NCBI GenBank assembly: GCA_963675595.2
Contig: CAXXLZ010000002.1
Location: 1,056,001 to 1,120,000 of the forward strand
Direction of reading: 5' to 3'
Origin: Thermodesulfobacteriota bacterium
GTDB taxonomy: Bacteria > Desulfobacterota > Desulfarculia > JACQYL01
DNA length: 64,000 bases
This document shows, one piece after another, positions 32,546 to 57,659 of this stretch. The notes below the pieces were generated by a model. The model was not told the origin of the DNA. It was given only the letters and a program-made list of their open reading frames with translations, and made no database searches. Position numbers and translations under genes: made by a program. Position 1 is the stretch's first letter. The number at the start of each line of letters is the position of its first letter.

Positions 32546-32845
32546 TTAGCGTATTACCCTACTCGCCTCAGGCACTCCTTCGTGGGAGTGTCGGTTCAAA
32601 GCTTCCCAGATTTCTCGATCTTCTTTGTCGAATCGCGATTCCAAGCGGGTAAGTTTCTTGCAGTGGTGTTCTCTCCATTCAAGGCAGTGTGTTTCGTCGA
32701 CCTTTTCCCTTAGGACGCCTTTTAGGTCTTCAATCACTCCTCGCATATCATTCCACTTGGTCACCCAGATATGGGCGATCAGCCCGTTGACCAGAGTGAA
32801 CACAAGTGAACCCGCAACAATAAGGAAGTCGGCGTACTTCTCCAT
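32546..32845 (-). CDS. Single-TM coiled-coil lysis-module protein
   Basis: N-terminal TM then charged coiled coil; follows the holin; AAGGA RBS. Confidence 0.7.
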   Translation of the reverse strand: MEKYADFLIVAGSLVFTLVNGLIAHIWVTKWNDMRGVIEDLKGVLREKVDETHCLEWREHHCKKLTRLESRFDKEDREIWEALNRHSHEGVPEASRVIR

Positions 32846-32852
32846 TGGAAGG

Positions 32853-33248
32853 TCATTCCTTTTTGCTTAGAATTTTCTCCGCGCTACGTCCCACCACATA
32901 CCCGCCCACGCCCACGTTGAGCAGCGCCCAGAGGCCGTCGGGTAGTTCGAGCATGACCACCTTGTCGGTGAAGGCGGACAGATAGGGGACAATGATGTAA
33001 TTGTTCACCACGATGGCCATGATGGACACCATGAGCATGGGGCGCCAGTTGCGTTGGAGCCAGGAGCCCCGGGCTTCCAGCCGGACGATGCTGGCCCGGA
33101 TTTCCTGATCCTGCAGCATGGCCGCCTGCATGCCGGCTTGGATCTCGGCCTTGGCTTTGGCCTTGTCCGCTTCACTCATGGACGGCGGGAACCAGTGATC
33201 CAGGACCTTACCCGCCACGTTCAGGGCCGTGTCGATAATGGGTATCAT
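32853..33248 (-). CDS. Holin (3TM / GTA-holin family)
   Basis: SWLQRNWRP and GGYVVGRSAEK motifs. Confidence 0.85.
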   Translation of the reverse strand: MIPIIDTALNVAGKVLDHWFPPSMSEADKAKAKAEIQAGMQAAMLQDQEIRASIVRLEARGSWLQRNWRPMLMVSIMAIVVNNYIIVPYLSAFTDKVVMLELPDGLWALLNVGVGGYVVGRSAEKILSKKE

Positions 33249-33257
33249 AACGTCCTC

Positions 33258-33605
33258 CTAATAGAGCCAGATGGTCGGCGCCGGTTTGCCCGGCACGTCG
33301 TCCACATGGATGAAGTCCTTGCCGATGCCGACCCGGCGAAAACCGGCCTCGATCAACGATTGGACGATTCTGAAGCGCATATCGCCGGAATCCGCGGCGA
33401 TATCCGCCGCAAGACCCGTTGTATGGTTGCCCTTGCCCCCAACGGCTTCGTCGTGTGTCCGGCAACGATAGCCGCTGGTGATCGCGAAAGGAACTCCCGC
33501 TAGCTCCCGCGCTTTATCCAAACGATCAAGGAACGGTTCACTCATATCCGCCTGACCGCACCCGCACCTGCACTTGAACTCTTCGATCTCGAAATATTTC
33601 ATCAT
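33258..33605 (-). CDS. Endolysin, peptidase M15 family
   Basis: YF..EF.CRCGCG, ITSGYRC, H..G.AADI, GIGKDFIHVD. Confidence 0.92.
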   Translation of the reverse strand: MMKYFEIEEFKCRCGCGQADMSEPFLDRLDKARELAGVPFAITSGYRCRTHDEAVGGKGNHTTGLAADIAADSGDMRFRIVQSLIEAGFRRVGIGKDFIHVDDVPGKPAPTIWLY

Positions 33606-33671
33606 TTACCTCTAAGCTAGCGTTTTTTCGGTAGGGAAGCCCCAACCGAAATTTCGAGTCCAAATTTTTCG

Positions 33672-33869
33672 TTAGATCGCGCAGACCCCGTCCGCGCATC
33701 GCATTCCGAACACCGGGACCGCCAAAGGCTTCACGATGAACCGCTCACAGTGATCCGGCTCCGGAAGCGGGTTGATCCATTGTTCCGTTTTGGATGTGAG
33801 CCTTGCCCATCCACAGACGTCCCAGACCGAGTACGTATTCATGAGCGGGCAGACTTTCGGACGTTCCAT
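33672..33869 (-). CDS. Small Cys-rich hypothetical protein
   Basis: 65 aa from ATG 33869, five Cys; co-oriented in the operon. Confidence 0.45.
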   Translation of the reverse strand: MERPKVCPLMNTYSVWDVCGWARLTSKTEQWINPLPEPDHCERFIVKPLAVPVFGMRCADGVCAI

Positions 33870-34060
33870 AAGAGTCGCCCCCAGATGATTGTGTAGACCT
33901 CGGCGATATACAACACGCCCCACTGCCGATGCTTCCACGCGGTCCAGAGCCAGGCGGGCTGAGCCAGAAGCGCCGCGATCAGGCCGAGTTGATTACGGCC
34001 GGTGAGCATCAGCCCGAGCGACGCGGTACCCAGGGCCGCGATGACGAGTTGCGTGATCAC
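33839..34060 (-). CDS. Small 3-TM membrane protein (PnuC-fragment-like)
   Basis: G...LLAQPAWLW.AW...QWG pattern; GTGA overlap with the upstream gene. Confidence 0.65.
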   Translation of the reverse strand: MITQLVIAALGTASLGLMLTGRNQLGLIAALLAQPAWLWTAWKHRQWGVLYIAEVYTIIWGRLLWNVRKSARS

Positions 34061-34410
34061 CTGCCTTCGGCCTCCCCGCGCAGCCGTTTCACTTCCCCCT
34101 CCAGGGCCTCCACTTCCCCGGCCAGGTCGCGTTTCTCCCGTTCCAGAACTTCGATTTGCTTGCTGAGTGAGGCCGCGGTCACTTGGTCTTCACCAACAGC
34201 CGAGCAAATCGCCCGAGGAACGAAGAGCGCCCGGAGCCCTTTGATTCCGAGCATCCTCAGGCGCTTCCGGCCCAGGTGCTTCATGATGCGAGGATGGTCG
34301 GCCGTTTCAATTGTCTGCCGTCCCATCAGGGCTTCCTGCAAGTCGAAACGCCCGAGCAGATGTTCGAGATCCTCAGGCATGAGGGGGATCGGTGCCGTTT
34401 GATTGGTCAT
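34057..34410 (-). CDS. Hypothetical protein with C-terminal coiled coil
   Basis: AGGAGG RBS before ATG 34410. Confidence 0.7.
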   Translation of the reverse strand: MTNQTAPIPLMPEDLEHLLGRFDLQEALMGRQTIETADHPRIMKHLGRKRLRMLGIKGLRALFVPRAICSAVGEDQVTAASLSKQIEVLEREKRDLAGEVEALEGEVKRLRGEAEGR

Positions 34411-34418
34411 GGGGCCTC

Positions 34419-37400
34419 CTATACGGTGGGCACGGTATTCCACGTTCCACCGACGGTATATGATGTCACGATGCCTTTTTTGTGCTTGAGCTCGATCACC
34501 CTGGCCTGAAGCGTTCCGCCGTTCCATCTCAGGTCGTACACGAAATTATTGGTGGTCTCCGAGCTCGGCACGCCCTGAGTGCCTCCTGCATAGAAATCGT
34601 CACCTCGAATGCTTGCGCCGTAGACGTTGCTCCACTTGTAGCTGCTTGAGCCGAGATTCCGTGTGCCGCTCGGCAACAGCGAACGAGCGAGCGTTGCCGT
34701 GCCGAGGGTACTCGAACTGATCAAAAAGGCGTTGCTCCCTCCCATGAGCACTTGAAAGCCGCTCAGGGCGCCGTCCTGTAGACTTAAAACCGAGGCATAC
34801 CATCTGAAGGTGTTCACGCCGAATTGCAAAACCGTGCTATTGGAAACTTCGAGAGGAGCGATATTTAGTGCGGGGGTTCCGGCCCCCACGTTTCCCCAAA
34901 TGGTCGCGATATTAGTGGAGCCGCGTAGGAATTTGATCTCCGCTTGATCTTCCCCACTGTCGGCGGCCCGCATGATAATATCCGCGCCGTTGTCCAGCGT
35001 GACGGACACGCCCGCCGCGATGACTCCCGATATCAGCTTGTCCACTGAAAGGTTGGCGATCTTGGCATTGGTCACGGCCAGGTTGGCAATTTTGCCCTCG
35101 GTGACCGCCAGGTTTCCGATCTTCGCCGTGGTGATGGACAGGTCCGCGTAATCGTCCGTCCCCTGTTGCGCGGGCGTCGCGCTCCCCATGTACACTCCGG
35201 CGGTGGACGACGGATTCCCGGTGTTATCGAACGCCCGAATCCAGTAGTAATAGGTGGTGGTGTAGCCGGTGGCCTTATCGTCGATCTTCTGCATGATCTC
35301 ACCGGGGCCGCCGGAGATGGAAAACGTGGGGGCCGTGGTATCGAAATTGGGAGCCGAGCCGTTGGTCTTTCTCCATATGCCGACCCACTTGAAGTCTTCG
35401 TCGGCCGGATTGTTCCATTCCAAACTGATACTGCGCTTCGCCGCGGTCACTGACGTAGAAAACGGGCTCGACGGCCCGGTCGTGTCCCCCGGAGCCAGTT
35501 GGTTCTCCAGGGTGATTGCGGTCGATTCCAACGCGAAGTTATTCACCGCCTTGGCCGCGAAGTCGTACTGCAGGCCGGGCGTGAGGCCGTCGAACCGAGC
35601 CTTCCAGGTACCCGATCCGGCGTCCTGGCCGTCCTGCCAACGGTAGGTCGTTTCGCCGTCTTTCTTGCAGCCGAAGACGATCTTGGCGAAGTTGGACGGA
35701 CTGTCCGCGCCCTTGACCGCTTCCACCACGAAAAAGGCTGTGGCGCCGCCGTCCTGGGCCACATACGCGCCGGAACTCGAAACCCCGATATCGGTCGGAT
35801 CATCCGGGGGCGTTCTTGAATAATCCGCGCCGCCCGACTCTTCTCCGTCGCCGGGCAGGGTACCTTCGTCATAAGTGTAGAGCTCGCTTGAATACGCCGC
35901 GACCGTTGCGGTGAAGCCTTCCAGGCCCCGCTCCAGGTCGATGACCCGGTATTCGCCGTTGGAAAGCAGTTCGACCAGGCTCACATCGTCCACATACCAG
36001 GTGCCGGTGGTCCTATTATAACTGCTGACTCTTATGTAACCGTATGCCCCGCCAACGGGTTCATCATATTCAACTTCAATGAGGTTCCACTGATTCAGCG
36101 TCAAACCTGTATGGTTCGTGTAGTCCACATAAGCGGAATTGTCGCCTTTCCTGATGGATATCTGGACGTTGTCATAATCGGTTGGATATACCCAAACTCT
36201 GCACCTATAGTGCTTTCCCGCCTCAACCGTGAAGTAACTACTCCAAATGCCTTCTTGATTCGAATTTACCGTGAATTTTCTTGAATAAGTCCCGGAATGG
36301 GCCTGCTCGGAGGAACGTTCATTTACGGTTGGGGTCCCGTAGCTTGCCCAATCGGAATCAGCCTCCATCGTCCCGTTGGGGACCAAGTTATCGCCCATGA
36401 TCCCGACGTTGAGTCTCGGCACGGAAAGCGAGATCACGTCCCCCGCGTTCAACGTCTTGGCGTCCTGGCCGAGCACCAGGTCCAACCGTTCGGCGGTGTA
36501 CAGGTGAAGCCGCTGGGTCCAACAGGCGATGCGGTCCGCCGTCTCCTTGTCCCGCACAAAGTCCAGCCGCTCGACCTTGTCTTCCCCGAAATCCGCGTTC
36601 ACCGTGCGTGAGCTGGTGGTGAACTCGTAGGAGCCGTCTTCGGCGCGGGCGTACTCGAATTGAATGGTCTTGATCGCGTCCCGGCTCGACGGGCGGTACC
36701 GGGGACCGGCCTGCACGATGTTCCCCTCGGCCGTGGAGAAGGTTCCCGCGCTTTCGGACACGTATTCGCCGTCCACGGAGATGAACCAGGACCCGTCCGC
36801 CCCTTGGGTCAACCGGCCCATGCAGCAGAACACCAGGGCGTCGATGATCTCCTTGGCCCGAGTTTGGGATGTGACCGCTCCATCGCACTTGAGCACCGCG
36901 ATGTCGGTGACCGCCGCGGCCGCGTCGAAGGAGTCCGAGTCCACGCTGAGCCCTAAGCCCCACGTGGCGTCCGACAGCACGTTCCGGATCACTTCCACGA
37001 AGTTCCGTTGGGCCTCGGTGTCGCCCATTTCCAGGCCGTACCAGTCGGCCTTGAGCTCGTAGAAATTGCCGCTGACGTCCCGCTGCTCCCACCCGGACCC
37101 GGTAAACTTCACCGTGGCGTAACCCTCGAAAGGCGACCCCGCGGAACCGTCATAACAGACCACCGTTGCGGCCATCTCCGTGGAACCCACCACCACGTCG
37201 TTACGGTACAAATTGACCGTCGTGGACTTGTTCGAATCGTTGCTCTCGGAGACGCCCCAGCCCACCAGGTAATGAGCCTCGTTATTCACCGAGTCGTTCT
37301 TGACGAGGGTGAGCGGAACCTTTTTGCACCGCCCGAACAGGATGTTGATGGAGGCGCCCAGGGAGTCTTCCGGCGCGTCTGGAAAGAGTTCCGCCGTCAC

Positions 37401-37907
37401 GGTCCGCGCTGGCAGGAGCTTGCTCAGCTCGTCCGGCTCCCGAAAGGACACGCTCACCCGCACCACGTCCTCGTAATCCACCCGGTCCACCCGGCCGGAC
37501 ACGGCGAAACGTTCGGTCAGACCTTCCGTGGTCTTGGTGTAGGGCGTCTCCCAGGAAGCGCCGGATTCCCAAGATACGCCCTCCTCCCAGGACACCAGCC
37601 GGTTGATCTGCTGCGTCGAGGTCTCATAGTCCGCCCTGGCAAGCGTGACTCGGGCGCCCCGCCAGTCCACCGGAGCCACGCCCCAGAGAAGCTCCTTGAT
37701 CTCCCCGTCCTCGTCGGACAGCTCCACCGTCACGTCCCCGTGCTCCAAAAACCCCGAGTACACCTCCGTGAACGTGTCCCGGACGGCCGGGTGAGCCTTC
37801 ACCACGCCCTTGTACTCGGTGGAGCCGTCGTAACAGTCCGCCGTGGCGAACCGGTGCACGGTCTCGCCTTGCGTGATGTCTATGAGCAGAATCGGGACGA
37901 TGGGCAT
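34419..37907 (-). CDS. Tail tip hub / central fibre protein with CBM-like insert and Fn3-like domains
   Basis: 1162 aa; hub-like N-terminus, NLVPNGTME..WYVDDVSL domain, GLTPGLQYDF.AKAVN and YYYWIRAFDNTGN Fn3-like motifs, 10-aa LAVTNAKIAN repeats. Confidence 0.85.
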   Translation of the reverse strand: MPIVPILLIDITQGETVHRFATADCYDGSTEYKGVVKAHPAVRDTFTEVYSGFLEHGDVTVELSDEDGEIKELLWGVAPVDWRGARVTLARADYETSTQQINRLVSWEEGVSWESGASWETPYTKTTEGLTERFAVSGRVDRVDYEDVVRVSVSFREPDELSKLLPARTVTAELFPDAPEDSLGASINILFGRCKKVPLTLVKNDSVNNEAHYLVGWGVSESNDSNKSTTVNLYRNDVVVGSTEMAATVVCYDGSAGSPFEGYATVKFTGSGWEQRDVSGNFYELKADWYGLEMGDTEAQRNFVEVIRNVLSDATWGLGLSVDSDSFDAAAAVTDIAVLKCDGAVTSQTRAKEIIDALVFCCMGRLTQGADGSWFISVDGEYVSESAGTFSTAEGNIVQAGPRYRPSSRDAIKTIQFEYARAEDGSYEFTTSSRTVNADFGEDKVERLDFVRDKETADRIACWTQRLHLYTAERLDLVLGQDAKTLNAGDVISLSVPRLNVGIMGDNLVPNGTMEADSDWASYGTPTVNERSSEQAHSGTYSRKFTVNSNQEGIWSSYFTVEAGKHYRCRVWVYPTDYDNVQISIRKGDNSAYVDYTNHTGLTLNQWNLIEVEYDEPVGGAYGYIRVSSYNRTTGTWYVDDVSLVELLSNGEYRVIDLERGLEGFTATVAAYSSELYTYDEGTLPGDGEESGGADYSRTPPDDPTDIGVSSSGAYVAQDGGATAFFVVEAVKGADSPSNFAKIVFGCKKDGETTYRWQDGQDAGSGTWKARFDGLTPGLQYDFAAKAVNNFALESTAITLENQLAPGDTTGPSSPFSTSVTAAKRSISLEWNNPADEDFKWVGIWRKTNGSAPNFDTTAPTFSISGGPGEIMQKIDDKATGYTTTYYYWIRAFDNTGNPSSTAGVYMGSATPAQQGTDDYADLSITTAKIGNLAVTEGKIANLAVTNAKIANLSVDKLISGVIAAGVSVTLDNGADIIMRAADSGEDQAEIKFLRGSTNIATIWGNVGAGTPALNIAPLEVSNSTVLQFGVNTFRWYASVLSLQDGALSGFQVLMGGSNAFLISSSTLGTATLARSLLPSGTRNLGSSSYKWSNVYGASIRGDDFYAGGTQGVPSSETTNNFVYDLRWNGGTLQARVIELKHKKGIVTSYTVGGTWNTVPTV

Positions 37908-37920
37908 CGAGATCGTTTGA

Positions 37921-37969
37921 CATGGGAAACCCTTTGAAAAGGGTTCCCCATGCCCCTCCTAAACTTTTT
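37921..37969. repeat. Family C hairpin repeat
   Basis: CATGGGAAACCCTTTGAAAAGGGTTCCCCATG + CCCCTCCTAAACTTTTT; supplies the stop of the 116-aa ORF. Confidence 0.85.
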
Positions 37970-38309
37970 GAGCGGCGAGCTTCACCGCTTCGATTTCCTC
38001 TTTGGTTTGCGCGGCCTCCACGGCGGCCTTTTCGGATGCAATGAGTGCATCCAACTTGGCTTGCCGAAGCTCGGCGATCTTGGCGGCCTTGGAGGCTTCC
38101 AGTTCCGCCGCTTCCCGCGCGGCCAGCTCCTCCTTTGTAAATTCGGGTTCGGGAATATTGCCTGCCGCAAGCCACTGTTGAATCTGTTGGTAATGGCGGT
38201 TGCGGGGATCGGGGGGCACCCATATGGTTTGCCCGTCCAGGTCAACGGCGTACCCGCCACCTTCCTGTAGCTTTACCCGACTTGGCTTAAATTCGACCTG
38301 TTCGTCCAT
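37959..38309 (-). CDS. Tail fibre assembly-like protein
   Basis: VPPDPRNRHYQQIQQWLAAGN.PEP motif seen downstream of fibre genes; EEIEAVK ending. Confidence 0.75.
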   Translation of the reverse strand: MDEQVEFKPSRVKLQEGGGYAVDLDGQTIWVPPDPRNRHYQQIQQWLAAGNIPEPEFTKEELAAREAAELEASKAAKIAELRQAKLDALIASEKAAVEAAQTKEEIEAVKLAAQKV

Positions 38310-38318
38310 GATCCACTC

Positions 38319-40022
38319 CTAAAGCTCCGCATCTCCGGTGATTTTGCCGGATGTGGTCAGAATGATCAAATAACCATCCGTCAACCCGTGGGATGTTTTG
38401 TCCGCCTGAATGTCGATGTGATCCTTTCTCCTCGAGCTTGTTGCCGAGAAGGTAAATCCGGTCGTGCTGCTACGGTCTACCTTGTATACCGCTATGTCGG
38501 TGTTCGGCGTGCCGACGATGGTCACGGATGGGGTGGCACGCATGGGAACGATTGGTATAACAAATCGGATGTCGTTCGTTCCGTAGTTGGTCATTCGAAA
38601 AGCCGAATACTCACCGAATACCTGATAGTACCTCCGACACAGAGCCAGCTCATAGCCCGGTTGTCGCACTTCAAACTCGGTGGCATGGCTGCCGAGTTCG
38701 AGCTGCACCTGCGCGATTCTGATTTGAGTTGCTGCTGCCTGAACTCCTGGAGTGTTAATTCTAACATACAATCCATTACTACAGTTTGAAGGCACTGCTG
38801 GAATTATATACTTATAATAAGTCCAACTGCTTGAAATATCCGTAAAATCTTCATAATCCTGAAGAGTAATGCTTGATAAATCATCCTCAGAATCTGCTGA
38901 GTAGATATTTACTCGAAGCGAGGTGCTGGTTCCGGCAACTTTTTTACACCAAAAACTTATAGTTATAGGTTTTCCAACAAGCTGTCGTGCGATATAGGCT
39001 TCTATCGGCTGTCCAATACTTACGGGATAATTAGCCACAGAGTTTGATAAATCCATAGAATACTTTGACTTACCGTTACTTGGAACGTCCGTATTTGCAG
39101 AAACCACCATATCCGCGAAGACGGCAATATTTAATATATTCCACCTATCGGCAGTATATGCGTCATAAACCTCCGTTATGCTCGTTCCTCGCTGCCAAAT
39201 GTCAAAGTTTCCATTGATTATTAAGTTCTTACCTAAGCCCAAATCGTCAACCACGGCCGCAACGTTGGCCGGAGTGACAATTCTGGATGTATCTGTACCG
39301 GCTAAGGTTTCGGCTTCCGTAGCTAATTCCGCGATCCCCTCAGCGCTCTCCGTAGCAGACGAAACGGAAGCGGAAGTATCATCATTTACCCATTGATTCG
39401 TGGCTCCATCATAGACAAGTATCTGACCACTACTTGGACTTCCAGCAACAACTTCAATGCCATTCAAATAGTCCGCATCAACACCATCCGGAATCCAAGC
39501 GTTATCTAAAGTGCCCCCAACTCCCCCAAGAGGAACAACCCCTGAACCAGCAGTAGCAGAAATGGTTAGGTCGGTAATGTCGCTTACAACATGATTGTGG
39601 GAAGCGTCCGCGAACGCCGAGGCATGTTCACCGTCCACCGTGTCGGCGTCGAGGCCGCTGCCTGGGCCGTCTTGGATCCATCCGGGATCCAACTTGCCAC
39701 CGGCCCCGCCGAGAGGAATCACGTTCGAACCCGGTGTGCCGGAAATGGTTTCCAGGTCCGGCACATTGGCCTTGGGCACTTCCGGCACGTACTCCAACCA
39801 CCGGCCGTTATTCGCCCCGGCATCGTCGGGTTTGACGGTGTATGGATGGCTCGCAACGGATTCCGACGCGGACGATGACGCCGCGAACCGAAACACATAA
39901 GACTTGGACGACGCAGTGACGAACGCCAGGTCTCCATCGTTCAAATCCGTCCACGGAACGGCGTCCAGGGCATTGGTCCCGCCTCCGGTCAAAGCCGTGC
40001 ATTCGTACACCTTGATCGACAC
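38319..40022 (-). CDS. Tail fibre protein
   Basis: GTG start overlapping the upstream TAG; GLDADTVDG, ATESAEGIAELAT..E, NLIINGNFDIWQRG, QLELGS.AT.FE, ELALCRRYY. Confidence 0.88.
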   Translation of the reverse strand: MSIKVYECTALTGGGTNALDAVPWTDLNDGDLAFVTASSKSYVFRFAASSSASESVASHPYTVKPDDAGANNGRWLEYVPEVPKANVPDLETISGTPGSNVIPLGGAGGKLDPGWIQDGPGSGLDADTVDGEHASAFADASHNHVVSDITDLTISATAGSGVVPLGGVGGTLDNAWIPDGVDADYLNGIEVVAGSPSSGQILVYDGATNQWVNDDTSASVSSATESAEGIAELATEAETLAGTDTSRIVTPANVAAVVDDLGLGKNLIINGNFDIWQRGTSITEVYDAYTADRWNILNIAVFADMVVSANTDVPSNGKSKYSMDLSNSVANYPVSIGQPIEAYIARQLVGKPITISFWCKKVAGTSTSLRVNIYSADSEDDLSSITLQDYEDFTDISSSWTYYKYIIPAVPSNCSNGLYVRINTPGVQAAATQIRIAQVQLELGSHATEFEVRQPGYELALCRRYYQVFGEYSAFRMTNYGTNDIRFVIPIVPMRATPSVTIVGTPNTDIAVYKVDRSSTTGFTFSATSSRRKDHIDIQADKTSHGLTDGYLIILTTSGKITGDAEL

Positions 40023-50029: not shown

Positions 50030-50130
50030 GTGCGCAACGTTGTGTGCGCCTCCCGCAGGGTGGCGCCTGCTTGGGGGTCCCGAACCCTCCCAAATTTTTC
50101 AGGTGGGGGTTCCGCCTTCGGCGGTCCCCT
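50030..50130. repeat. Family C degenerate left unit with accessory hairpins
   Basis: GTGTGCGCCTCCC..AGGGTG..TCCCGAACCCTCCCAAATTTTT matches 46731-46787. Confidence 0.7.
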
Positions 50131-50156
50131 GGAGTGCGTGAGTCAAGATCCGGATG

Positions 50157-50405: not shown

Positions 50406-50450
50406 AAGCCTCTCACTCCGGCCCCTCCGCCAGGGCGGTGGGGCCCGCTT

Positions 50451-50505
50451 AAAATGTTTTCGGAGGGGGTTCGGGGGAACCCTTTTTCAAAAGGGTTCCC
50501 CCTCC
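50451..50505. repeat. Family C hairpin repeat
   Basis: AAAATGTTTTCGGAGGGGGTTCGGGGGAACCCTTTTTCAAAAGGGTTCCCCC. Confidence 0.85.
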
Positions 50506-50518
50506 TTCATCTCTCCGC

Positions 50519-51652: not shown

Positions 51653-51671
51653 ATCCGGCCTCCTATTCTTG

Positions 51672-51880
51672 GTGGGGGAAAGCCTTCGAAGAGGTTTTCC
51701 CCCATGCCCCTTTCCCAGACTTTTCAAACCGGGCTCACCCGCCTTCGCCGGGAGAGCCGGGTCTGCTTCCGTGGTTCGTCGTTTCCCATACGCGCCTGCG
51801 GCAAAGCCGCCGGCGCTTGCTCAAAGGTTTTTGGGGAGAGGTCCGGGGAGGGGCGTTTTGCTAGAAAGCCCCTCCCCGAC
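51672..51880. repeat. Family C inverted pair
   Basis: GGGGGAAAGCCTTCGAAGAGGTTTTCCCCC..CCCAGACTTTT ... AAAGGTTTTTGGGGAGAGGTCCGGGGAGGGGC..GCCCCTCCCCG. Confidence 0.85.
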
Positions 51881-51906
51881 ATCCCTCTTTCACCTTCCCT
51901 CGCTTC

Positions 51907-51969
51907 GTACGCCGCAGCGACGAAGGCTGAAGCGCAACGCCGCAGATGGCGTTTCTTGGCGGCCTGTCA
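51907..51969 (-). repeat. MITE family A, half copy at the scaffold stop codon
   Basis: GTACGCCGCAGCGACGAAGGCTGAAGCGCAACGCCGCAGATGGCGTTTCTTGGCGGCCTGTCA. Confidence 0.8.
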
Positions 51970-52692
51970 GGTGATTCTGACCCTGCCTTCCGCAAACGCT
52001 TCCCGATGTTGCCGGTAGATGTTGGGGTCCTTCATCTGTTCCTGAGTCAGGGCGACCATGCCTCCCGACGCGCCTCCGGCCGGGCTGCCTCCTCCGGACC
52101 CGCCCGAGGGCTTGAACAGGTGAGGCGATTTCTCACGAAGTTCCCCGACCAGTTCCTCGGCGGTCAGGGGATCGCCTTTGGTGGAAAGTCGTTTGCGACC
52201 TTCTCCATCGTGCACCATCACTCTGAGTTGGCCGTTGTGTTCTTCCACGGTAAGGTATTTGTTCAGACGAAGCCTTACGTCTTCGGGATCGAAGGCTCCG
52301 ACTCGGGCCGCGGCTTGAGACAGCTCGTTGCCCACCAGCAACCGGTGAATATTGCTCTGAAGCCGTTCGATCTCTTGGTTCTTCCCATTGATCGTCAGCG
52401 CGTGATCCTCGTCCTTACGTTGGAGCAATTCCTGGTACCGCTTCTCGTCCAGGAGTTCTTTCTCCCGGTCTGCCTTGGCTCCGGCATCGAGTTCCCGAAA
52501 CCGGTCCGGGTCCACGCCTTCGAAGCGTTTCTCCAATTCTCCGAGTTTGTTTTGGAGTTGCTCCGCCCATTTCTTGGTTTCGTCCAACTTGGCGGAGGGC
52601 ACGAAAGCGGCTTCTTTGCCGTCTCCAAGCTCGAACACCGGGTTGCCGTCCCTGAGTACCAAGTTGCCGTCATTGTCCAATTTGGGTTTCAT
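51967..52692 (-). CDS. Capsid scaffolding protein
   Basis: KLD.DGN.VL.DGNPV, coiled coil, PHLFKPSGGSGGGS; directly upstream of the capsid gene. Confidence 0.85.
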   Translation of the reverse strand: MKPKLDNDGNLVLRDGNPVFELGDGKEAAFVPSAKLDETKKWAEQLQNKLGELEKRFEGVDPDRFRELDAGAKADREKELLDEKRYQELLQRKDEDHALTINGKNQEIERLQSNIHRLLVGNELSQAAARVGAFDPEDVRLRLNKYLTVEEHNGQLRVMVHDGEGRKRLSTKGDPLTAEELVGELREKSPHLFKPSGGSGGGSPAGGASGGMVALTQEQMKDPNIYRQHREAFAEGRVRIT

Positions 52693-52747
52693 GCGTCCTC
52701 TCTTTGCCTTTATGAATGTCCAAACCTGGCTTGCTTATCGATTTGCT

Positions 52748-52935
52748 TGAGGGAACCCTTTGGAAAGGGTTCCCTCACCCTCCCAAACTTTTTAAGTCTT
52801 TCAGGACAGGCAGCTCGGCTTGCTTATGTTGAGATCGTGCCTCCGCTCCTCTCCGCCAAAGGCGGAGTGGGGCCTGCTCAAGGATTTTTGGAGGGTGGTC
52901 CGGAGGGAACCTTTTTGCAAAAAGGTTCCCTCCGG
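52748..52935. repeat. Family C inverted pair
   Basis: TGAGGGAACCCTTTGGAAAGGGTTCCCTCA.CCTCCCAAACTTTT ... AAGGATTTTTGGAGGGTGGTCCGGAGGGAACCTTTTTGCAAAAAGGTTCCCTCCGG. Confidence 0.88.
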
Positions 52936-52950
52936 CTTCACTTCGCCCAT

Positions 52951-53928
52951 TCATGCCGCATCCGGGATGTCTTGGATGCGGAGGATGTTCCCGTGGTAAG
53001 ACACGTCTTCCAGAGGTAAGCCCGCTTTCCACCTTTTCCACCGGATGGGTCCGAGAATCTCTTTTTGAATGGATTCGCCCTGTCGGCGGAGCCATTCCAC
53101 ATAGTCCGATGAAGAGCCCGATTGAAAGTTGCCCATGCGGTCTTCAATGTAGGGCACGTAGACGCATCGGCAGTTGGGATGTTGAGGCACAAGCGGCCGG
53201 TTCGGGTCGTTTCGACCAAAGACCTTGCCCGAAGACGCGGCGCACTTTCCGCACGTAGCGGCGTCAAGCACGGCCACGTATAGGAGACGTTCCACCTTGG
53301 CACCGGCGAACACGTTTTCATTCACCGTGCCCGTGGTACTCATCACCGTGGTCCGAGCCAGAGTGCGGCTCAGTCGTCCGGCTATTTCGGCGACTTTCTT
53401 ACGGATTCTTTGAGCAGCCGAAGCCGGTCCGTCACCCGCCGACGCCGCTTCTACGATCGTTTTCTTGATTCGTCGGCCTATGCCTGTAAAGGCCCGTTTG
53501 ATCCAGGTCTTCAGGGACACCCAACCCACTTCGCTTTCCATGACCGACAGGAGCAACACAGCTTCCACGCCGGAGCTTTCGAACTCGATGCCGTCGACGC
53601 TCCCCCAGATGGATTCCATGGACTTGGTCTGAGCCTCGACAATCTCTTGAATCCTTCCTTCCAAATCGTTCATGAGTGAGGACTCGGCTTCCTCGATCCA
53701 GAGGTCGATATCCGCTTGGACCATTCTGAAGCGTTGCACCCACAGACCATCTTGCGCGTCGGCGATCCCTTTCCAGGGGCCTCGTGAGGCACGCAGCAGC
53801 CGAGATTCCACCTGTTCGACCACCCGTTCAAAAGCTCGCCTGAACAAACGCGCGTCCTTTCGGACTATGGAATCCATTCGCAACGCATTGGTGATCTGTC
53901 GGTCGACGGCCTGTTCCATGTCGGACAT
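52951..53928 (-). CDS. Minor head morphogenesis protein (Mu gpF / SPP1 gp7)
   Basis: RTLART, AVLD..TC..C, P.HPNCRC, WLRRQ....Q.EILG. Confidence 0.9.
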   Translation of the reverse strand: MSDMEQAVDRQITNALRMDSIVRKDARLFRRAFERVVEQVESRLLRASRGPWKGIADAQDGLWVQRFRMVQADIDLWIEEAESSLMNDLEGRIQEIVEAQTKSMESIWGSVDGIEFESSGVEAVLLLSVMESEVGWVSLKTWIKRAFTGIGRRIKKTIVEAASAGDGPASAAQRIRKKVAEIAGRLSRTLARTTVMSTTGTVNENVFAGAKVERLLYVAVLDAATCGKCAASSGKVFGRNDPNRPLVPQHPNCRCVYVPYIEDRMGNFQSGSSSDYVEWLRRQGESIQKEILGPIRWKRWKAGLPLEDVSYHGNILRIQDIPDAA

Positions 53929-53960
53929 GATGCATGGCCCCTTTCCGGGTGGATTCTTTC

Positions 53961-54128
53961 GGGCAGGCACTATGGCCTACCCCTAAACGGGAAGACACCG
54001 CTGAGTTCCTGATTCCTTCACTCACCCCGCCATTGCTTGCCTCCAACGCCTCCCCGCTTGCGGGGTGGCGCCTGCCCAAAATGTTTTGAAGGAGGTCTGG
54101 AGGAAACTTTTTCAAAAGTTTCCTCCAG
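53961..54128. repeat. REP variant plus family C hairpin
   Basis: GGGCAGGCACTATGGCCTACCCCTA and AAAATGTTTTGAAGGAGGTCTGGAGGAAACTTTTTCAAAAGTTTCCTCCAG. Confidence 0.8.
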
Positions 54129-54160
54129 TTCTTCCCTCCGCTTTTCCTTCCTCCCCCACC

Positions 54161-55531
54161 TCAAACCAGCATGGCGTCGGTTTCGACGCGCAGGCGTTCC
54201 CGTTCCAGCTCCGGATCGAAGTCTTCGTCCAACACGTGTTTCTTGCGGAGGAAATCCCAAAGGGTTTCCCGGGACAAGTCTCCGTTCATGCGCATTTGGT
54301 TCAGACCGGAGATGAGGCCGTCCGCGATCTGCACGGGATCCATGTCTTGGTTGTACTCGACTCGGATGTCGTCGGGGCTTAGCCCCATCCACCGGGCCGC
54401 CCACCGCCAACACTGCTCTTCCGCCCGTCCGGACCGTCTTGATCGCTCCTGCAGCACGCTGACCAGATTGTGCCTGTCTATCGCTTTGGATTCGGCACTC
54501 TCCACGAGCCTGGATGTGCGCCGCACTTGGCGCATACTGATCTCAAAGATGGCGGAAATGAGGTCCGTTTCGCTCCGCCTCATGGACTCGATAGCCGTGC
54601 CGGAATGCTCGAGGATTTCCACTTCCGAATCCCGTCCGGGAGTCACAATACCGTTGCCCGCACCGATGACCACTTCCTGATCTTCCGGCCAGTTCTTGAA
54701 CACCCAGGTAGGCATGCCCGCCCAGAACTCGGAATTGTCCCGGTCCGATGCTTTGCGAAAGTGAAGCAGACAAAGGCTCAAAATACCGTGAAGCGCACTC
54801 CGGCCTTGAAAAGCGCCCACACAATCGGAATAGAAAACCGCAAGAGGTATCTCTCCCAAGCTGTTACGTCCCTCGGCCAGTTTCTTCGGACCCTTCTCCA
54901 CTGCATCGTGTTTCCACAGCTCCCAGCCATCGGGCCGCCATAGCCGGTATCTTTTTTCTTTGGCGTGCCCTACGAAGGGCTCGGCCCGTACTTCCACGTC
55001 CTCCTCGATCACCACCCAGGCAAGGCGCTCCCTTCCGTCCGGCCCGGGCACAAAAGCCCAGTCCAACACGCGCCTCGGGTCCAGATCGATGAAATAGGGG
55101 CGCACGCCGAACGCGTTCTCATCCGCACGGCTTCGCACTTCCGACGTATCCGGATAATCCACGAGCACGAACCGGATGCCTTCCACCTGAGCGTTTTGAG
55201 TCACGTTCTTGAAGAACGCGTCCGCCGGGGTTCCCCTGCGGTCCACATCTCCAGCGAGCCCCTTAAGCCCAACCGGCAGTTCTCTTACAGGTCCCCTCCG
55301 CCAAATCTGTCCCGTGAAACTCTCAATCATGGGCAGGCAAAAATTGCTGTACGCCGCACGACTCAACCGCACCCGATAGTTCCCGGCCGTCTCCCGCTCG
55401 TGCTTGGGCAAGTAGTCCGACCGACCCTCGATGCGGCTCCCGCCTTCGTAACAATCCCGAGCCCGGTTCCATTCCGCGAGCTGACTTAGATACAAAGGAT
55501 GCTTTCGGTCTAGTTGGAGATATTGAGTCAT
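54161..55531 (-). CDS. Portal protein (DUF4055-like)
   Basis: HP.Y, YLPK...E....Y..RL.RA...NF, DVDRRGT, VLVDYP, RPY, LGEIPL; follows terL. Confidence 0.92.
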   Translation of the reverse strand: MTQYLQLDRKHPLYLSQLAEWNRARDCYEGGSRIEGRSDYLPKHERETAGNYRVRLSRAAYSNFCLPMIESFTGQIWRRGPVRELPVGLKGLAGDVDRRGTPADAFFKNVTQNAQVEGIRFVLVDYPDTSEVRSRADENAFGVRPYFIDLDPRRVLDWAFVPGPDGRERLAWVVIEEDVEVRAEPFVGHAKEKRYRLWRPDGWELWKHDAVEKGPKKLAEGRNSLGEIPLAVFYSDCVGAFQGRSALHGILSLCLLHFRKASDRDNSEFWAGMPTWVFKNWPEDQEVVIGAGNGIVTPGRDSEVEILEHSGTAIESMRRSETDLISAIFEISMRQVRRTSRLVESAESKAIDRHNLVSVLQERSRRSGRAEEQCWRWAARWMGLSPDDIRVEYNQDMDPVQIADGLISGLNQMRMNGDLSRETLWDFLRKKHVLDEDFDPELERERLRVETDAMLV

Positions 55532-55633
55532 TTTTTGTGTCCGGGGAACCCTTGGGCGTGGGCCGCGCGCTTCGCGCGGGGCCTGGTCACCGTGGAAATA
55601 ACGATCGAGGTTATCCTTGTGGTGCTTCTTCCT

Positions 55634-55832
55634 TAGAGGGCAGGCACTATGGCCTGCCCCTACATGGGATTTGCATGTTCGTGTAGGGGGCAGCCCACAG
55701 TGGTCGCTCTGGAAACAGGGTTCTCTCGATTTCCATGCCCGCCCCCTTTGCGCCTCCCGAAGGGTGGCGCCCACTCCAAGGTTTTTGGAGGGAGGTTCGG
55801 AGGGGACCTTTTTTCAAAAAGGTCCCCTCCGA
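55634..55832. repeat. Inverted REP doublet plus family C hairpin
   Basis: GGGCAGGCACTATGGCCTGCCCCTAC / GTAGGGGGCAGCC..; AAGGTTTTTGGAGGGAGGTTCGGAGGGGACCTTTTTTCAAAAAGGTCCCCTCCGA. Confidence 0.85.
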
Positions 55833-55879
55833 TTCTCTCTCCCCCTTCCTTCCTTTTCTTCTCTCCCCTTCCCTTCCCA

Positions 55880-57163
55880 TCACACGGTCACCATTCTGGC
55901 TTTGCCGGCGTCTCGCACCGGGTGCTCGGCTTCGATGGCGTAGCCCAGAGCGTCGGTGAGGTGCGTAAGGTGCGGATCGGACTTCTTGTCGATGTCTCCG
56001 GAGGTGCCTTCGAGCACACGTACACCTTCGAAGTCTCGAATGGTTTGGGTGCATTTGGGGTCTACGACTAAATGGACTTCACCGGACGCGGTTTTCAGGC
56101 GACTGTTCACCGCGTTGACTCTTGCCCGTTCGGACGGGTTGGCTTTGGGAACCCGGTCGCTCAGGCGTCCCGAAAAGATCGGACGCAAAGCGGACTTCAC
56201 CAAGTCCCAATCGGTACCGGCGACTTGGGCCGTGCCTCGAGCTCCTCCCGAAGCATCTCCATACAGTCTTACGCGACCGGCATGATGCCGGTAGCGCTGG
56301 AGAAATTCATTGCAGACGGTCGGCGTGTTGGAATGTTTGGGAATATGGATTTCGTCGATGACGCCGGTGACCCCGTCACGTTCCTGCAAAATCCCCGCGA
56401 CACCGGGAGATACATTGAAATCCAGGCAGAACCAAAGGTCCTCCTTGGCTTCGTAGGCAAAGGAGCGCACGTGTTCGTCTCGGGAGAACGGGTAGTAGAT
56501 TCGTCCTTGGAACGCTACGAAAGCCGCTTCGTATTCCTGCCGAAAGGTTGCCGGGTCCAGTTCCCGCCGGGCCGCCTCGATTTCCGCGGGAGGCAGAATG
56601 TCCGATGAGAACCAGGTGTAGCCCCGCCAATCCCGATTCGTGGGATCGCAGGCAAATGTGTACAAGTCATAGTAATGATTGCGTCCTTCCGGGACTCCGA
56701 TCATCCAGGCCCAGCCGGTTCGGTCGGACAAAGCGGGCCGCACGTGAGCCGGCCACGTTTCAGCTTTCATGTTGGCGTATTCGTCCAGCACAACGCCGTC
56801 CCAGGGAGAACCCTCGATGCGTTCCGGCTTGTCCAAACCCAGAACCCACAGCTCCGCCCCCCAGCGAGTACGGATGAACAGATCGCTTTCACTGATCTTG
56901 GATTTCCATTCGGTCGGTACCAGGGCTTTCAGGTCGTTCCAGTAGATACGCTTGGGCTGATCCCGAGTGGGCGCACAGGCCGCGTACCTCGTGTCCGGCC
57001 AAGGCTTCACCTCCACCAGGGAAGTGACGAGAAATCGTTTGGCCAACTCGGTCTTGCCCGACCTCCGCCCGGCGGGCACCACTCTGAAACGTACGTCGTC
57101 GGCCCAGAGAGCGTACTGAATCGAATGGGGGCGAAGCACCGTCCAACGACTAGTCGGAGGCAC
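55880..57163 (-). CDS. terL: Terminase large subunit
   Basis: Walker A GRRSGKT, Walker B VVLDEYA, FRQEYEA.F, nuclease LDFNV and H..DALGY. Confidence 0.96.
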   Translation of the reverse strand: MPPTSRWTVLRPHSIQYALWADDVRFRVVPAGRRSGKTELAKRFLVTSLVEVKPWPDTRYAACAPTRDQPKRIYWNDLKALVPTEWKSKISESDLFIRTRWGAELWVLGLDKPERIEGSPWDGVVLDEYANMKAETWPAHVRPALSDRTGWAWMIGVPEGRNHYYDLYTFACDPTNRDWRGYTWFSSDILPPAEIEAARRELDPATFRQEYEAAFVAFQGRIYYPFSRDEHVRSFAYEAKEDLWFCLDFNVSPGVAGILQERDGVTGVIDEIHIPKHSNTPTVCNEFLQRYRHHAGRVRLYGDASGGARGTAQVAGTDWDLVKSALRPIFSGRLSDRVPKANPSERARVNAVNSRLKTASGEVHLVVDPKCTQTIRDFEGVRVLEGTSGDIDKKSDPHLTHLTDALGYAIEAEHPVRDAGKARMVTV

Positions 57164-57659
57164 AATCTTTGCCTTTCACCGTGGCACGGTTCATTTCCTG
57201 AAGGCTCTCCAGTACCCGGTCGGCGAAGTCTTTCGACCCGTCATCCTTCGATTCGCGAGAGTTTCCTACTCGCTCGAGGAGTTCCCGTAGTCGATTGATT
57301 TCATCCTGTGTCTTGTGAATGAGGCGGAACAACGCAATTTCAGCGCTTGGTGCAAAGCTGTGAGTGGTGGTGACTTCCAGGCTCCCATTGGAGTATTCGG
57401 TCCGCTTGACCTCTTCCCATCCCTCTTGGAAGCGCTCCAACCGTTCGTTGAGCCTGGCGAGTTCCGCATCCTTCTGAGCCACCGCGTGAACCAGGTCGTC
57501 TTCTCTGGAGAATCCGAGATCGTTTTCGATGACCCAACGCAAAGCTCGTTGCACCGTGCTTTGGGACACACCGAGTTCCTGCGCGATGTGAACAACGTTC
57601 AGACCGCGTCGTTTCAGTTCGAATATCTTGAAGTAGCGGTCCTGGGTTTCCTTTGTCAC
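57150..57659 (-). CDS. Terminase small subunit candidate with N-terminal HTH
   Basis: GLNVVHIAQELGVSQSTVQRAL HTH; overlaps the terL start. Confidence 0.75.
   Translation of the reverse strand: MTKETQDRYFKIFELKRRGLNVVHIAQELGVSQSTVQRALRWVIENDLGFSREDDLVHAVAQKDAELARLNERLERFQEGWEEVKRTEYSNGSLEVTTTHSFAPSAEIALFRLIHKTQDEINRLRELLERVGNSRESKDDGSKDFADRVLESLQEMNRATVKGKDCASD

Follow-up and report, generated by a model that had tools for sequence, protein, structure and literature searches.

A siphovirus late module grounded in a Thermodesulfobacteriota genome: a candidate domesticated element related in kind to gene transfer agents

Why should a bacterial genome keep a whole set of siphovirus late genes and none of the genes for excision, replication or lysogeny control? 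The question is raised by a cluster on the minus strand (positions 57659 to 32546) of a 64,000-nucleotide stretch of DNA from a Thermodesulfobacteriota bacterium of the class Desulfarculia, called here the window. A preliminary description proposed that it is a domesticated gene transfer agent (GTA) or PBSX-like particle. In our judgement the chances lean, by a little, towards a grounded siphovirus late module kept by selection as a domesticated GTA-like, particle-producing element of an undescribed lineage that has neither excision nor replication nor lysogeny control of its own. Since selection appears to have kept the late module intact, the module is probably domesticated, and this would place it, within a new lineage, among the candidates for GTA-like or lateral-transduction elements.

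Assignment to PHROGs and Pfam families resolved the cluster into 25-26 intact ORFs in the order terS, terL, portal, head, neck, tube, G/GT chaperone, tape measure, tail tip, M15 endolysin and 3TM holin, in agreement with the 26 co-oriented genes, canonical terS-to-lysis order and freedom from premature stops first described. From the terS side to the lysis side, the features are:

57660-57925, minus strand: spacer of 266 bp separating terS from a divergent gene for a host membrane sensor, presumably the region that controls the cluster
57150-57659, minus strand: terS, small terminase, 169 aa, with an N-terminal helix-turn-helix (HTH; Pfam HTH_23)
55880-57163, minus strand: terL, large terminase, 427 aa (phrog_2, E 1.3e-34; Terminase_6N)
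54161-55774, minus strand: portal protein (phrog_145, E 4.3e-98)
52951-53970, minus strand: head morphogenesis protein, Mu F / SPP1 gp7-like (phrog_241; Phage_Mu_F)
51967-52692, minus strand: scaffolding protein (phrog_206, E 1.2e-30)
51907-51954, no strand assigned: host-genome repeat of 48 bp in the spacer between scaffold and major capsid protein (MCP) genes, with 39 further copies beyond the cluster, spread over all three contigs
50519-51727, minus strand: MCP, P22 coat type (phrog_283, E 1.9e-72; P22_CoatProtein, E 8.5e-39)
48122-50405, minus strand: 82-aa ORF, Ad1 head-tail adaptor, Hc1 head closure, Neck1/tail completion and tail terminator proteins (phrog_477, 161, 169, 179)
46933-48060, minus strand: tail tube protein (phrog_290, E 5.4e-78; Phage_tube_2, E 8.1e-56)
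45871-46606, minus strand: tail assembly chaperone G (46223-46606) with its -1 frameshift extension T (to 45871) (phrog_313)
41989-45870, minus strand: tape measure protein, 1293 aa (by position and size)
34419-41927, minus strand: tail tip and fibre module of 342, 258, 673, 116 and 1162 aa (phrog_4492; PF13550; homologues on contig C69 of G001, a genome of another genus)
33672-34527, minus strand: three small ORFs of 156, 73 and 88 aa, two with homologues in G001
32546-33605, minus strand: lysis cassette (phrog_894, phrog_3427), comprising the next three features
33258-33605, minus strand: M15 endolysin (Peptidase_M15_3; H61x6D68 motif)
32853-33248, minus strand: 3TM holin (GTA_holin_3TM, PF11351)
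32546-32845, minus strand: 99-aa TM/coiled-coil protein
29950-32199, minus strand: lysis-side border, where an IS (DDE transposase, 29950-31829) meets a truncated sensor-like ORF (31830-32199) (DDE_Tnp_1_6, DDE_Tnp_1, DUF772)

The cluster thus holds what a siphovirus-type virion module (Caudoviricetes) comprises, that is TerS, TerL, portal, scaffold, capsid, connectors, tube, frameshifted chaperone, tape measure and tip, and its functions are, as in GTAs, those of virion, packaging and lysis only, according to a family scan that covered the window ORFs above 27000 and part of those below. Across the 25 kb of coding DNA no ORF is broken by a stop, a frameshift or an IS, and the homologues in G001 align over their full length. 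The motifs reported as intact are all present: Walker A (AGRRSGKT) and Walker B (VVLDE) in TerL, the endolysin motif, and the -1 slip site A_AAA_AAC at 46232-46226, immediately before the chaperone G stop; the T frame is conserved in G001 (52% identical). Residues 1-1151 of the tape measure align with that of G001 at 36%. The 673-aa fibre-like protein corresponds to ORF 38319-40340, with a probable start near 40019, and the 1162-aa tail-tip protein carries Phage-tail_3 (PF13550). The three small ORFs gave no match in the family search, and no regulator gene is recognisable by PHROGs or Pfam families inside the cluster.

The packaging genes deserve closer attention. The terS and terL genes overlap by 14 nt. 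HTH_23 scores 24.7 bits in TerS against a Pfam cut-off of 24.6, and it and other HTH families match residues 11-42; the AF2 model places a three-helix HTH at 3-47, followed by a helix, a beta-hairpin and a helix, with a pLDDT of 85-91 in the N-terminal three-helix bundle. The best fold matches, which are weak, are the TerS proteins of phages G20c and P74-26 and of an SPP1-like phage, and aligned TerS homologues are 27-55% identical. TerL is 76% identical to its counterpart in G001, 53% to that of MW202621, an uncultured free siphovirus of 55.7 kb with the same terS-terL-portal order, and 49-52% to those of clusters in family f97. Portal homology to relatives begins near residue 71.

On the terS side the border is as first described: the gap between terS and the divergent host-type membrane gene (317 aa) measures 266 bp, and this flank carries host genes for Usp, a hybrid RR-kinase and a PAS kinase besides that membrane sensor. 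Positions 45000-58200 gave no sigma-70-like site. Host genes also lie downstream of the cluster. There, the reported distance of about 390 bp stands (391 bp from the last cluster gene to the ATG of the next ORF, at 32154), but the neighbour is not the host-type gene it was taken for: it is an N-terminal sensor-like stump cut by the 1.88-kb IS, with no continuation on the far side of that element. The IS has 20 other copies in the genome at 99.7% identity or more, none of its 21 copies being inside the 25 kb. Host-genome repeats of three families do occur in the cluster, all in spacers and none in ORFs; the 48-bp unit and 28-bp palindromes (17-19 matches outside the cluster) confirm the gathering of repeats in intergenic gaps that had been noticed at the outset.

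The search for mobility and early genes was extended to the whole genome. Nothing contradicted the initial impression that integrase, repressor, replication gene, tRNA and att repeat are all missing: no tRNA was found in the window, no integrase within 220 kb (the closest tyrosine integrases lie 220 and 458 kb from the cluster, and the sole serine recombinase of the genome 3.5 Mb), and the best repeat between the borders is a 10-mer, a length equalled in 25 of 200 shuffles. Neither terL, portal nor MCP has a paralogue elsewhere in the genome. In MW202621, genes for a VirE primase, ligase, DNA polymerase, nuclease and helicase lie divergently just upstream of terS, where the window has host sensor genes instead; no close homologue of these early genes was found in the genome, so that the hunt for a displaced early region, suggested in the preliminary description, ended without one. 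An intact temperate prophage is rejected because no integrase, att repeats, repressor or replication module accompanies the late genes, and a transposable (Mu-like) phage because only the widespread Phage_Mu_F head domain is shared and host genes lie upstream of terS.

The strongest rival explanation is an inert defective prophage, which lost its early half by deletion, whose late half has not yet decayed, and which makes no particles and has no function. We consider it unlikely. The junction between terS and the host genes is real and old. Runs X1 and X4 both have contigs that cross it, among them record 21 of X4 (another organism label, another study), 3463 bp long with 114 differences, which spans 56549-59995 over terS and host genes. 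Misassembly, one of the ways in which the GTA proposal might have failed, is rejected on the evidence of these contigs. The X4 strain is about 3% diverged and the junction predates that split. Divergence from X4 is 1.9-6.2% in the cluster and 2.4% in the host flank. Of the tape-measure codon changes listed against runs X3 and X4 (one gene, 17 codons only), 13 are synonymous and 4 non-synonymous. The dN/dS comparison proposed earlier gave NG86 values well under 1, 0.07-0.17 between the window genome (G000) and G001, with 0.09-0.12 between G001 and metagenome relatives (dS 0.4-0.6). At the level of sequence comparison, this shows purifying selection on the cluster, and the diverged strain's junction, the predominance of synonymous changes and the repeats in the spacers support the long residence under host selection that had been suspected. 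An inert remnant does not readily account for a late-only junction older than the strain split with such a ratio of changes since, nor for 25 kb of uninterrupted coding DNA in a genome where one IS is present 21 times. Codon usage is a further sign of residence, the distance to the host being 0.379 for the cluster and 0.633 for a complete prophage on contig C1, with host gene sets at 0.222 +/- 0.048. On the other hand, composition is not fully host-like: only 1% of the host sets are as far as the cluster, and GC3 (0.714 vs 0.676), with codon usage, still lies at the edge of the host range. The phage-type TerS with its HTH, a holin in common with the resident prophage and an IS-mediated rearrangement beside the lysis end also fit a prophage remnant.

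Relatives in the class and phylum bear on the same question from both sides. Nine distinct loci offer 2 kb or more of sequence upstream of the packaging genes, namely G000, G001, G014, L034, L036, L042, L043, L047 and L049; all nine are late-only, no early gene being recognised in any, and this counts against an inert prophage. Eight of the nine have an ORF with a host-type Pfam domain or a match to the G000 chromosome within about 2 kb, although for L036 this is solely a CheZ-like divergent gene conserved beside the cluster, for L042 only weak matches of short ORFs, and for L043 only ORFs within about 1 kb at 30-33% identity. One of 14 distinct genomes has a tyrosine integrase within 20 kb; in G029 an integrase is found 6 kb upstream of the portal gene. 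That integrase apart, the only intact relative seen with early genes is the free phage MW202621, a further point against an inert prophage. Judged by synteny, some relatives are vertically inherited: L034 and L036, from two genera of one Desulfarculia family (f5), have both flanks in common, and in family f97 the portal occurs in 15 of 18 genera and 28 of 37 genomes, or 19 of 22 when high-quality genomes are counted, its locus being syntenic in all six genomes compared. For the window cluster itself, vertical inheritance is seen at strain level, in the shared junction, whereas between genera the flanks of G001 are non-syntenic, and neither terL nor MCP was found in G002, which belongs to the same family and is 99% complete; the proposed check of sister genomes therefore succeeded among strains and failed beyond them. 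At 5-7 kb upstream, G001 also carries an IstA/IstB pair of the IS21 type whose IstA is split; as a hint of a transposable phage, we take it to be probably incidental. Among the loci with an HTH-type TerS (G000, G001, L042, G014, L043, L047) no flanking ORF is common but one small ORF of L043 and L047, and the MCP occurs patchily, in 3 of 95 class genomes. This patchy distribution at non-syntenic loci favours an inert prophage, as do the portal of L039/L040, diverging after about 328 residues, and the cluster of L036, whose missing tail module indicates that such clusters also decay. The original GTA proposal is thus strengthened by the late-only content, the verified assembly, purifying selection, the distinct lineage and the late-only relatives, and weakened by the HTH of TerS, a locus not common to G001 and the lack of a match in G002.

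The holin introduces a second, improbable alternative, that of a helper-dependent element, silent alone and switched on or supplied by a resident phage such as the C1 prophage (C1:1288-1347 kb), in the manner of a satellite or a pirated structural module. Besides a primase, an anti-repressor and a terminase of its own, that prophage has at its end a holin 95% identical in amino acids and 87% in nucleotides to that of the cluster, and the cluster has no recognisable regulator gene. However, the two share only the holin, a 51% identical endolysin and a 43% identical tail protein, and the cluster lacks the integrases and replication genes with which known satellites are equipped. The nucleotide identity suggests that the cluster still exchanges genes with phages. 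The holin does belong to the family named for GTA release, found in true phages too, but its occurrence in a complete prophage removes its value as a pointer to GTAs. It is very improbable that an intact prophage had its early region split off by recent rearrangement or assembly error: although the 21-copy IS stands at the lysis end and the sequences on either side of it do not join up, an early region should lie next to terS, a border that has no IS and whose junction is bridged by two runs, one of a diverged strain, and no displaced module was found with the queries used.

If the cluster is a domesticated GTA-like element, it resembles none of the described ones closely. With RcGTA and RcGTA-like elements (Rhodogtaviriformidae, Alphaproteobacteria) it shares a chromosomal head-tail cluster in terS-terL-portal order with no integrase or replication genes, the holin family PF11351 and a large tail protein with PF13550; its relatives show the family-wide, syntenic vertical inheritance that has been described for RcGTA (PMC6854486). 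It differs in its P22-type coat and scaffold, its 25 kb, its 1293-aa tape measure, its 169-aa TerS with an HTH and the position of its lysis genes inside the cluster. RcGTA has an HK97-type coat and a prohead protease in a cluster of about 15 kb. Membership in the RcGTA-like group is rejected, given P22_CoatProtein with a separate scaffold, no match to a protease family, and only the two Pfam families in common. PBSX-type elements of Bacillus are, like the window cluster, late-gene clusters with their own lysis genes that cannot propagate, but PBSX has a contractile tail (sheath) and xre/xpf-type control genes; with no sheath, no match to an xre/xpf-like regulator, and a tail of siphovirus tube, G/GT chaperone and tape measure, a PBSX-like identity is rejected as well. 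Coat, scaffold and siphovirus tail together support the separate lineage that the preliminary description had supposed. To our knowledge, Dd1 of Desulfovibrio desulfuricans is the only GTA reported from this phylum; Rapp and Wall, in 1987, are said to have found a short tail and 13.6-kb DNA. Its predicted terS likewise lies directly upstream of terL (PMC6854486). By description only, the two TerS proteins differ, that of the window having 169 aa and an HTH and that of Dd1 (Ddes_0720) 125 aa and, in the accounts cited, no detectable DNA-binding domain (PMC6854486; PMC11841831). At 125-126 aa, the TerS ORFs of L034 and L036 match that of Dd1 in length, no more than a lead. Defective prophages that have been grounded or domesticated, reportedly treated by Bobay et al. 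in 2014, are also remnants fixed in the chromosome, with strain-level vertical inheritance and purifying selection, but the window keeps a whole virion and lysis module rather than scattered accessory genes, and the same partition recurs in many genomes.

We infer expression, particle formation, packaging of DNA and a host benefit along the following lines. Set off by a host signal, expression from the 266-bp spacer ahead of terS would take in the cluster as one minus-strand operon, procapsids with the P22-type coat would assemble on the scaffold, and TerS and TerL would cut the chromosome directly and package it into them by the headful; a tail about 190 nm long would then be joined to the head, and the holin, the M15 endolysin and the 99-aa protein would lyse the producer. 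The putative TerS of known GTAs is described as having no DNA-binding domain (PMC11841831), and the HTH sets the window protein apart. Because TerS keeps it, a site-specific start of packaging is likelier than random packaging of the RcGTA type. The start would probably lie in or near terS, with packaging running through the cluster into the adjoining chromosome, as in lateral transduction by the pac-type prophages 80alpha of S. aureus and P22 of Salmonella, which package headfuls in situ from a TerS-recognised site of the unexcised element into flanking DNA. Unlike these complete inducible phages, the window element could package in situ only. The MCP is 41% identical to that of the 78-kb Dinoroseobacter phage R5C and its relatives come from phages of 72-79 kb, so that the head may hold more than the 25-kb cluster, contrary to a strict GTA. 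A broader reading, which we find doubtful, is that an undescribed superfamily of domesticated, integrase-less head-tail clusters exists in Thermodesulfobacteriota, including the element of about 15 kb in 28 of 37 f97 genomes and the syntenic element of Desulfarculia, and that the 25-kb version in the window is a GTA by obligate lateral transduction, its HTH-bearing TerS packaging the cluster and adjoining chromosome headful by headful for delivery to other cells.

Detection of new GTAs leans on similarity to known ones, an approach described as working in Alphaproteobacteria and as hard in distant bacteria (PMC11841831). The cluster is a concrete, testable GTA-like candidate in relatives of sulfate reducers, and it was found by a comparative signature of late-only architecture, no integrase, a conserved junction, low dN/dS and family-wide synteny in relatives. 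Should particles be made, the HTH-bearing TerS would allow site-started, directional packaging by a domesticated element to be tested directly. Such packaging, if true, would link GTAs with lateral transduction and matter for how genes move through anaerobic communities of sediments and enrichments.

The cluster at 57659-32546 reads as an uninterrupted late operon of siphovirus type, assigned gene by gene with PHROGs and Pfam, in a genome (G000) of 6.79 Mb in three contigs with a GC content of 56%; the window is C2:1056001-1120000 of this genome. Its components, in operon order, are as follows.

57659 to 32546, minus strand: whole late operon
First gene, minus strand: TerS, 169 aa, with HTH
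Minus strand: TerL, Terminase_6N, with Walker A AGRRSGKT and Walker B VVLDE
Minus strand: portal, then a Mu-F/gp7-like head protein, then scaffold (PHROGs/Pfam)
Minus strand: P22-type coat (MCP), E 8.5e-39
Minus strand, after MCP: 82-aa ORF, Ad1, Hc1, Neck1 and tail terminator
Minus strand: tube, Phage_tube_2
Minus strand: chaperone, then tape measure (TMP) of 1293 aa
Minus strand: five tail-tip/fibre genes, one for a 1162-aa Phage-tail_3 protein
Minus strand, between the tail-tip genes and the endolysin: three small ORFs
Minus strand: M15 endolysin, H61x6D68
Minus strand: 3TM holin, PF11351
Last gene, minus strand: 99-aa TM/coiled-coil protein

These calls, the intact motifs and the summed ORF lengths (23,703 of 25,114 nt, overlaps counted twice) bear out the complete and intact virion and lysis operon of the preliminary description. 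The chaperone gene ends in ...GAA AAA AAC TGA, and because the -1 frame opens just before this point, reaches the TMP start and shares 52% identity with its counterpart in G001, a genome of the same family and another genus, the G/GT frameshift device is intact.

On the terS side, 266 bp separate the operon from a divergent gene for a 317-aa membrane protein (57926-58879, plus strand), the host-type neighbour described earlier at that distance, which is followed by Usp, a receiver-kinase hybrid and a PAS/HAMP kinase. The C-terminal ~80 aa of this protein recur at no fewer than 17 other places in G000 with 38-66% aa identity, as well as near the clusters of G001 (C69:12047) and G014, a Desulfarculia MAG, and are predicted to be a multi-copy sensor-associated domain. 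On the lysis side, 391 bp follow the last cluster gene before an ORF whose start resembles the N-terminus of a membrane sensor. The distance agrees with the host-type gene reported at about 390 bp, but what stands there is only a stump of ~119 N-terminal aa (31830-32199, minus strand), not a whole gene, cut by a 1.88-kb IS at 29950-31829. Beyond the IS the ORF is not resumed, so that a rearrangement through the IS has brought its two sides together; the genes further left are ordinary host genes. The IS encodes a 569-aa DDE transposase (DDE_Tnp_1_6, DDE_Tnp_1, DUF772) and has 20 other copies on C1 and C2 with 99.7-100% identity; it looks like an element that has spread in a recent burst. Older fragments (89-93%) lie near C2:2236-2243 kb, and two copies stand head to tail at C2:3852908-3856684.

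Between these borders the best direct repeat is a 10-mer, at chance level, and a tRNA scan found no tRNA gene in the window, as had been claimed for both tRNA and att repeats. Matches to PF00589 (tyrosine integrase) occur at 13 places in G000, the closest lying 220 and 458 kb away, the single match to PF00239 (serine recombinase) is 3.5 Mb away, and the genome holds no paralogues of terL, portal or MCP. The nearest free phage by TerL (53% identity), the complete 55.7-kb uncultured siphovirus MW202621, gives a picture of an intact relative, with genes for a VirE primase, ligase, DNA polymerase, nuclease and helicase divergent and immediately upstream of terS. G000 encodes nothing close to its early proteins; the best matches, the host polymerase and the primase of a prophage on C1, reach 23-28% identity. 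The lack of an early module in the cluster, noted from the start, is not made up for elsewhere: the integrase, recombinase, paralogue and MW202621 queries found no displaced early region in the genome. As for promoters, there are no sigma-70 consensus sites in 45000-58200 (shuffle mean 3.2), and no sigma-54 site is evident by eye in 57560-57990.

The C1 prophage (C1:1288049-1347559; L013-L015) is separate, of another type and apparently complete, with a 794-aa primase, anti-repressor, terS, terL, portal/adaptor, internal virion protein, a 3571-aa ORF and an integrase match at C1:1347131. The holin at its end is 95% identical in aa and 87% in nt to that of the cluster. A third trace of the lysis cassette is seen on C2, as a paralogue of the 99-aa protein (58%, 36643-36939) and a holin gene fragment (83%, 34548-34614).

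Parts of 48000-57950 are present in ten public sequencing runs, none of them recorded as RNA, and contigs from four of them (X1, X3 and X4 included) were compared with window positions 44001-64000. In X1, possibly the source sample, a 6741-bp contig with 0 differences bridges the junction between terS and host DNA. The same junction is bridged by a 3463-bp contig with 114 differences (~3.3%) in X4, which has another organism label and comes from another study; X4 diverges by 1.9-6.2% in pieces of the cluster and by 2.4% in the host flank at 60001-64000. X3, ~1% diverged, also has pieces of the cluster, but its contigs do not extend over the junction. The junction is thus not an assembly artefact and, since the diverged strain of X4 has it, the late-only state is older than the strain split.

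The genes show purifying patterns of substitution at several distances. Among 20 listed bases (of 766 differences) at 44110-44452, all in TMP, the changes of X3 and X4 affect 17 codons, 13 synonymously and 4 not. By NG86, dN/dS is 0.086 for terL between G001 and the metagenome contig L042 (dS 0.62), 0.090 for terS between G001 and a metagenome relative, and 0.118 for portal between G001 and the relative locus L038; values for G000 against G001 (0.065-0.167) are rough because dS is saturated at 1.4-3.0. Codon usage lies at a distance of 0.379 from 1701 long host ORFs, against 0.222 ± 0.048 for random host sets, 1% of which are as far, and 0.633 for the C1 prophage; GC3 is 0.714 (host 0.676). 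The cluster thus resembles the host in part but not completely.

The spacers between head and tail genes are unusually long (61-326 bp) and rich in hairpins and, as was first noticed in the sequence, hold repeats shared with host DNA: a 48-bp unit (51907-51954) of which 39 other copies are spread over all three contigs, 28-bp GC palindromes (48088-48114, 41954-41981 and 40827-40854) with 17-19 matches outside the cluster, and the spacer between MCP and the 82-aa ORF with 8. None of the spacer repeats or IS copies interrupts a cluster gene. A composite element follows six genes (terL, portal, Mu-F, scaffold, MCP and tube; 46607-55879), in the order GC hairpin with T/A-rich loop, CC(A)5CCTTGAGCAGG, second GC hairpin; it is mostly specific to the cluster, with weaker copies in host DNA, and may act as a signal for transcript processing or termination, or else be a small mobile repeat. 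The spacer hairpins were considered as an ancestral regulatory element and dropped, the cluster-specific motif not being kept in G001 or G014. Ahead of the G014 portal there is nonetheless a comparable GC hairpin, also with a T/A loop.

MCP alone, as first query over genome contigs, found no relative, and MCP is present in 3 of 95 genomes of the class. In G001 the cluster is spread over two contigs, neither of which has an integrase, and its proteins are 33-76% identical in aa to those of the window (terL 76, MCP 75, tube 70, portal 64). The M15 endolysin and the 88-aa ORF have no match at the corresponding place, and at G001:C69:29557-37221, compared with window 32546-41927, the 342-aa and 258-aa tail genes stand in reverse order. 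Upstream of its terS lie a 189-aa ORF without assignment, an ARPP-1 fragment, Fic, a chaperone-like gene and an IS21-type pair, and past its holin a clostripain, FAD oxidase, CoA transferase and chemoreceptor. These flanks match scattered places in G000 with no synteny, a comparison that is uninformative since neighbouring G001 genes are scattered there too. G002, of the same family and 99% complete, has neither terL nor MCP. L042 is 84-86% identical in nt to G001, the similarity stopping ~640 bp upstream of terS. G014 (L029-L032) has a cluster of ~14.7 kb in 21.9-36.6 kb of joined loci, sharing terS to Neck1 with the window (32-41%), including a G000-like TerS with HTH. Host genes lie on both sides, among them a PAS/sigma-54 activator 1.5 kb upstream, which may be a lead to cluster regulation; beyond it are microcompartment-type genes (RnfC-like, PTA, EutQ). 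In the identical metagenome contigs L039 and L040, which hold G000-type repeats, the portal ORF is 70% identical to that of the window over its first ~328 residues and then unrelated, and none of the genes after it matches the cluster; these contigs would represent a mosaic relative or else a close relative's decayed copy.

At all nine distinct loci with at least 2 kb of upstream sequence (G000, G001, G014, L034, L036, L042, L043, L047 and L049), no early genes were recognisable upstream of the packaging genes. At eight, an ORF with a host-type Pfam domain or a G000-chromosome match lies within ~2 kb, L036 counting only by a CheZ-like gene beside its cluster and L042 only by weak matches; the flanks of L042, L043, L047, L049 and family f97 were judged only from tblastn comparisons with one another and with the G000 chromosome. 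A portal alignment query of viral contigs found one, uninformative on early genes because it ends 3.7 kb upstream of portal. Of 14 distinct genomes, one has a tyrosine integrase no more than 20 kb from the cluster, although absence on short draft contigs is weak evidence; this integrase stands 6 kb upstream of the portal homologue (G029:C28:250490-257914), and this locus may be a true prophage relative.

Related clusters between shared flanking genes are found in two other families of the phylum, the Desulfarculia family f5 and f97.

L034 7934-25600: f5 cluster, ~17.7 kb
L036 7878-18500: f5 cluster of a second genus, ~10.5 kb
G439:C1:959435-975122 (L052-L053): example of the f97 cluster, integrase-less, head-tail

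All three f5 genomes have a terL match. The L034 and L036 clusters lie between the same flanking genes, a 545/599-aa gene upstream and, downstream, three small ORFs, an acyl-CoA dehydrogenase (78%) and a 370-aa gene (63%); between them MCP is 85% identical, portal 66, terL 55 and terS 46. L036 is without the tail module (~9 kb), and the f5 TerS is short (125-126 aa). The conserved 545-599-aa gene, with only a weak CheZ match, is divergent and directly upstream of the L034, L036 and L049 clusters. With a portal profile, 11 of 401 genomes in a phylum-wide sample matched at E <=1e-40; in f97 the portal is present in 28 of 37 genomes (19 of the 22 of high quality) and 15 of 18 genera. In all six genomes compared, the ~15.7-kb f97 cluster comes after one and the same pair of host genes, of 672 and 363 aa, and, where sequence reaches downstream, is followed by the same 317-aa gene in G511, G490 and partly G311, and by a 339-aa gene in G511 and G490. 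Within f97, terL (68-78%) and portal (67-83%) are about as similar as the flanks; f97 terL is 49-52% identical to that of the window. The f97 cluster is itself a strong GTA candidate, apparently undescribed.

The window cluster lacks the marks of an intact temperate or Mu-like prophage. As predicted from its genes, it resembles GTA and PBSX-type elements in being a non-propagating particle-and-lysis cluster. The separate lineage that had been proposed holds as regards RcGTA, since a P22-type coat with scaffold sets the cluster apart from that family, and no sheath was found that would make it PBSX-like. That it is an inert remnant is a serious rival reading; the data fit a late module that is grounded and maintained rather than simply on its way to decay. 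Of the domesticated, host-selected cluster first envisaged, the late-only state and purifying selection hold, but three features set it apart from a textbook GTA. TerS is phage-sized and by Pfam and structure model keeps its N-terminal HTH (sequence search of PDB gave HTH matches at chance level only, and Foldseek weak matches to phage TerS proteins, best E 0.033), the capsid relatives belong to phages of 72-79 kb, and the branch with this TerS type sits at a different locus in each genome. On the same three grounds, a model of headful packaging started at a site, in situ, as in lateral transduction, is favoured over random packaging. Among the 12 literature matches listed of 472, no paper links Desulfarculia to GTAs or prophages. 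The wider family does have members distributed like known GTAs, that is family-wide, syntenic and co-diverging, and this raises the prior that the window cluster, too, may make particles.
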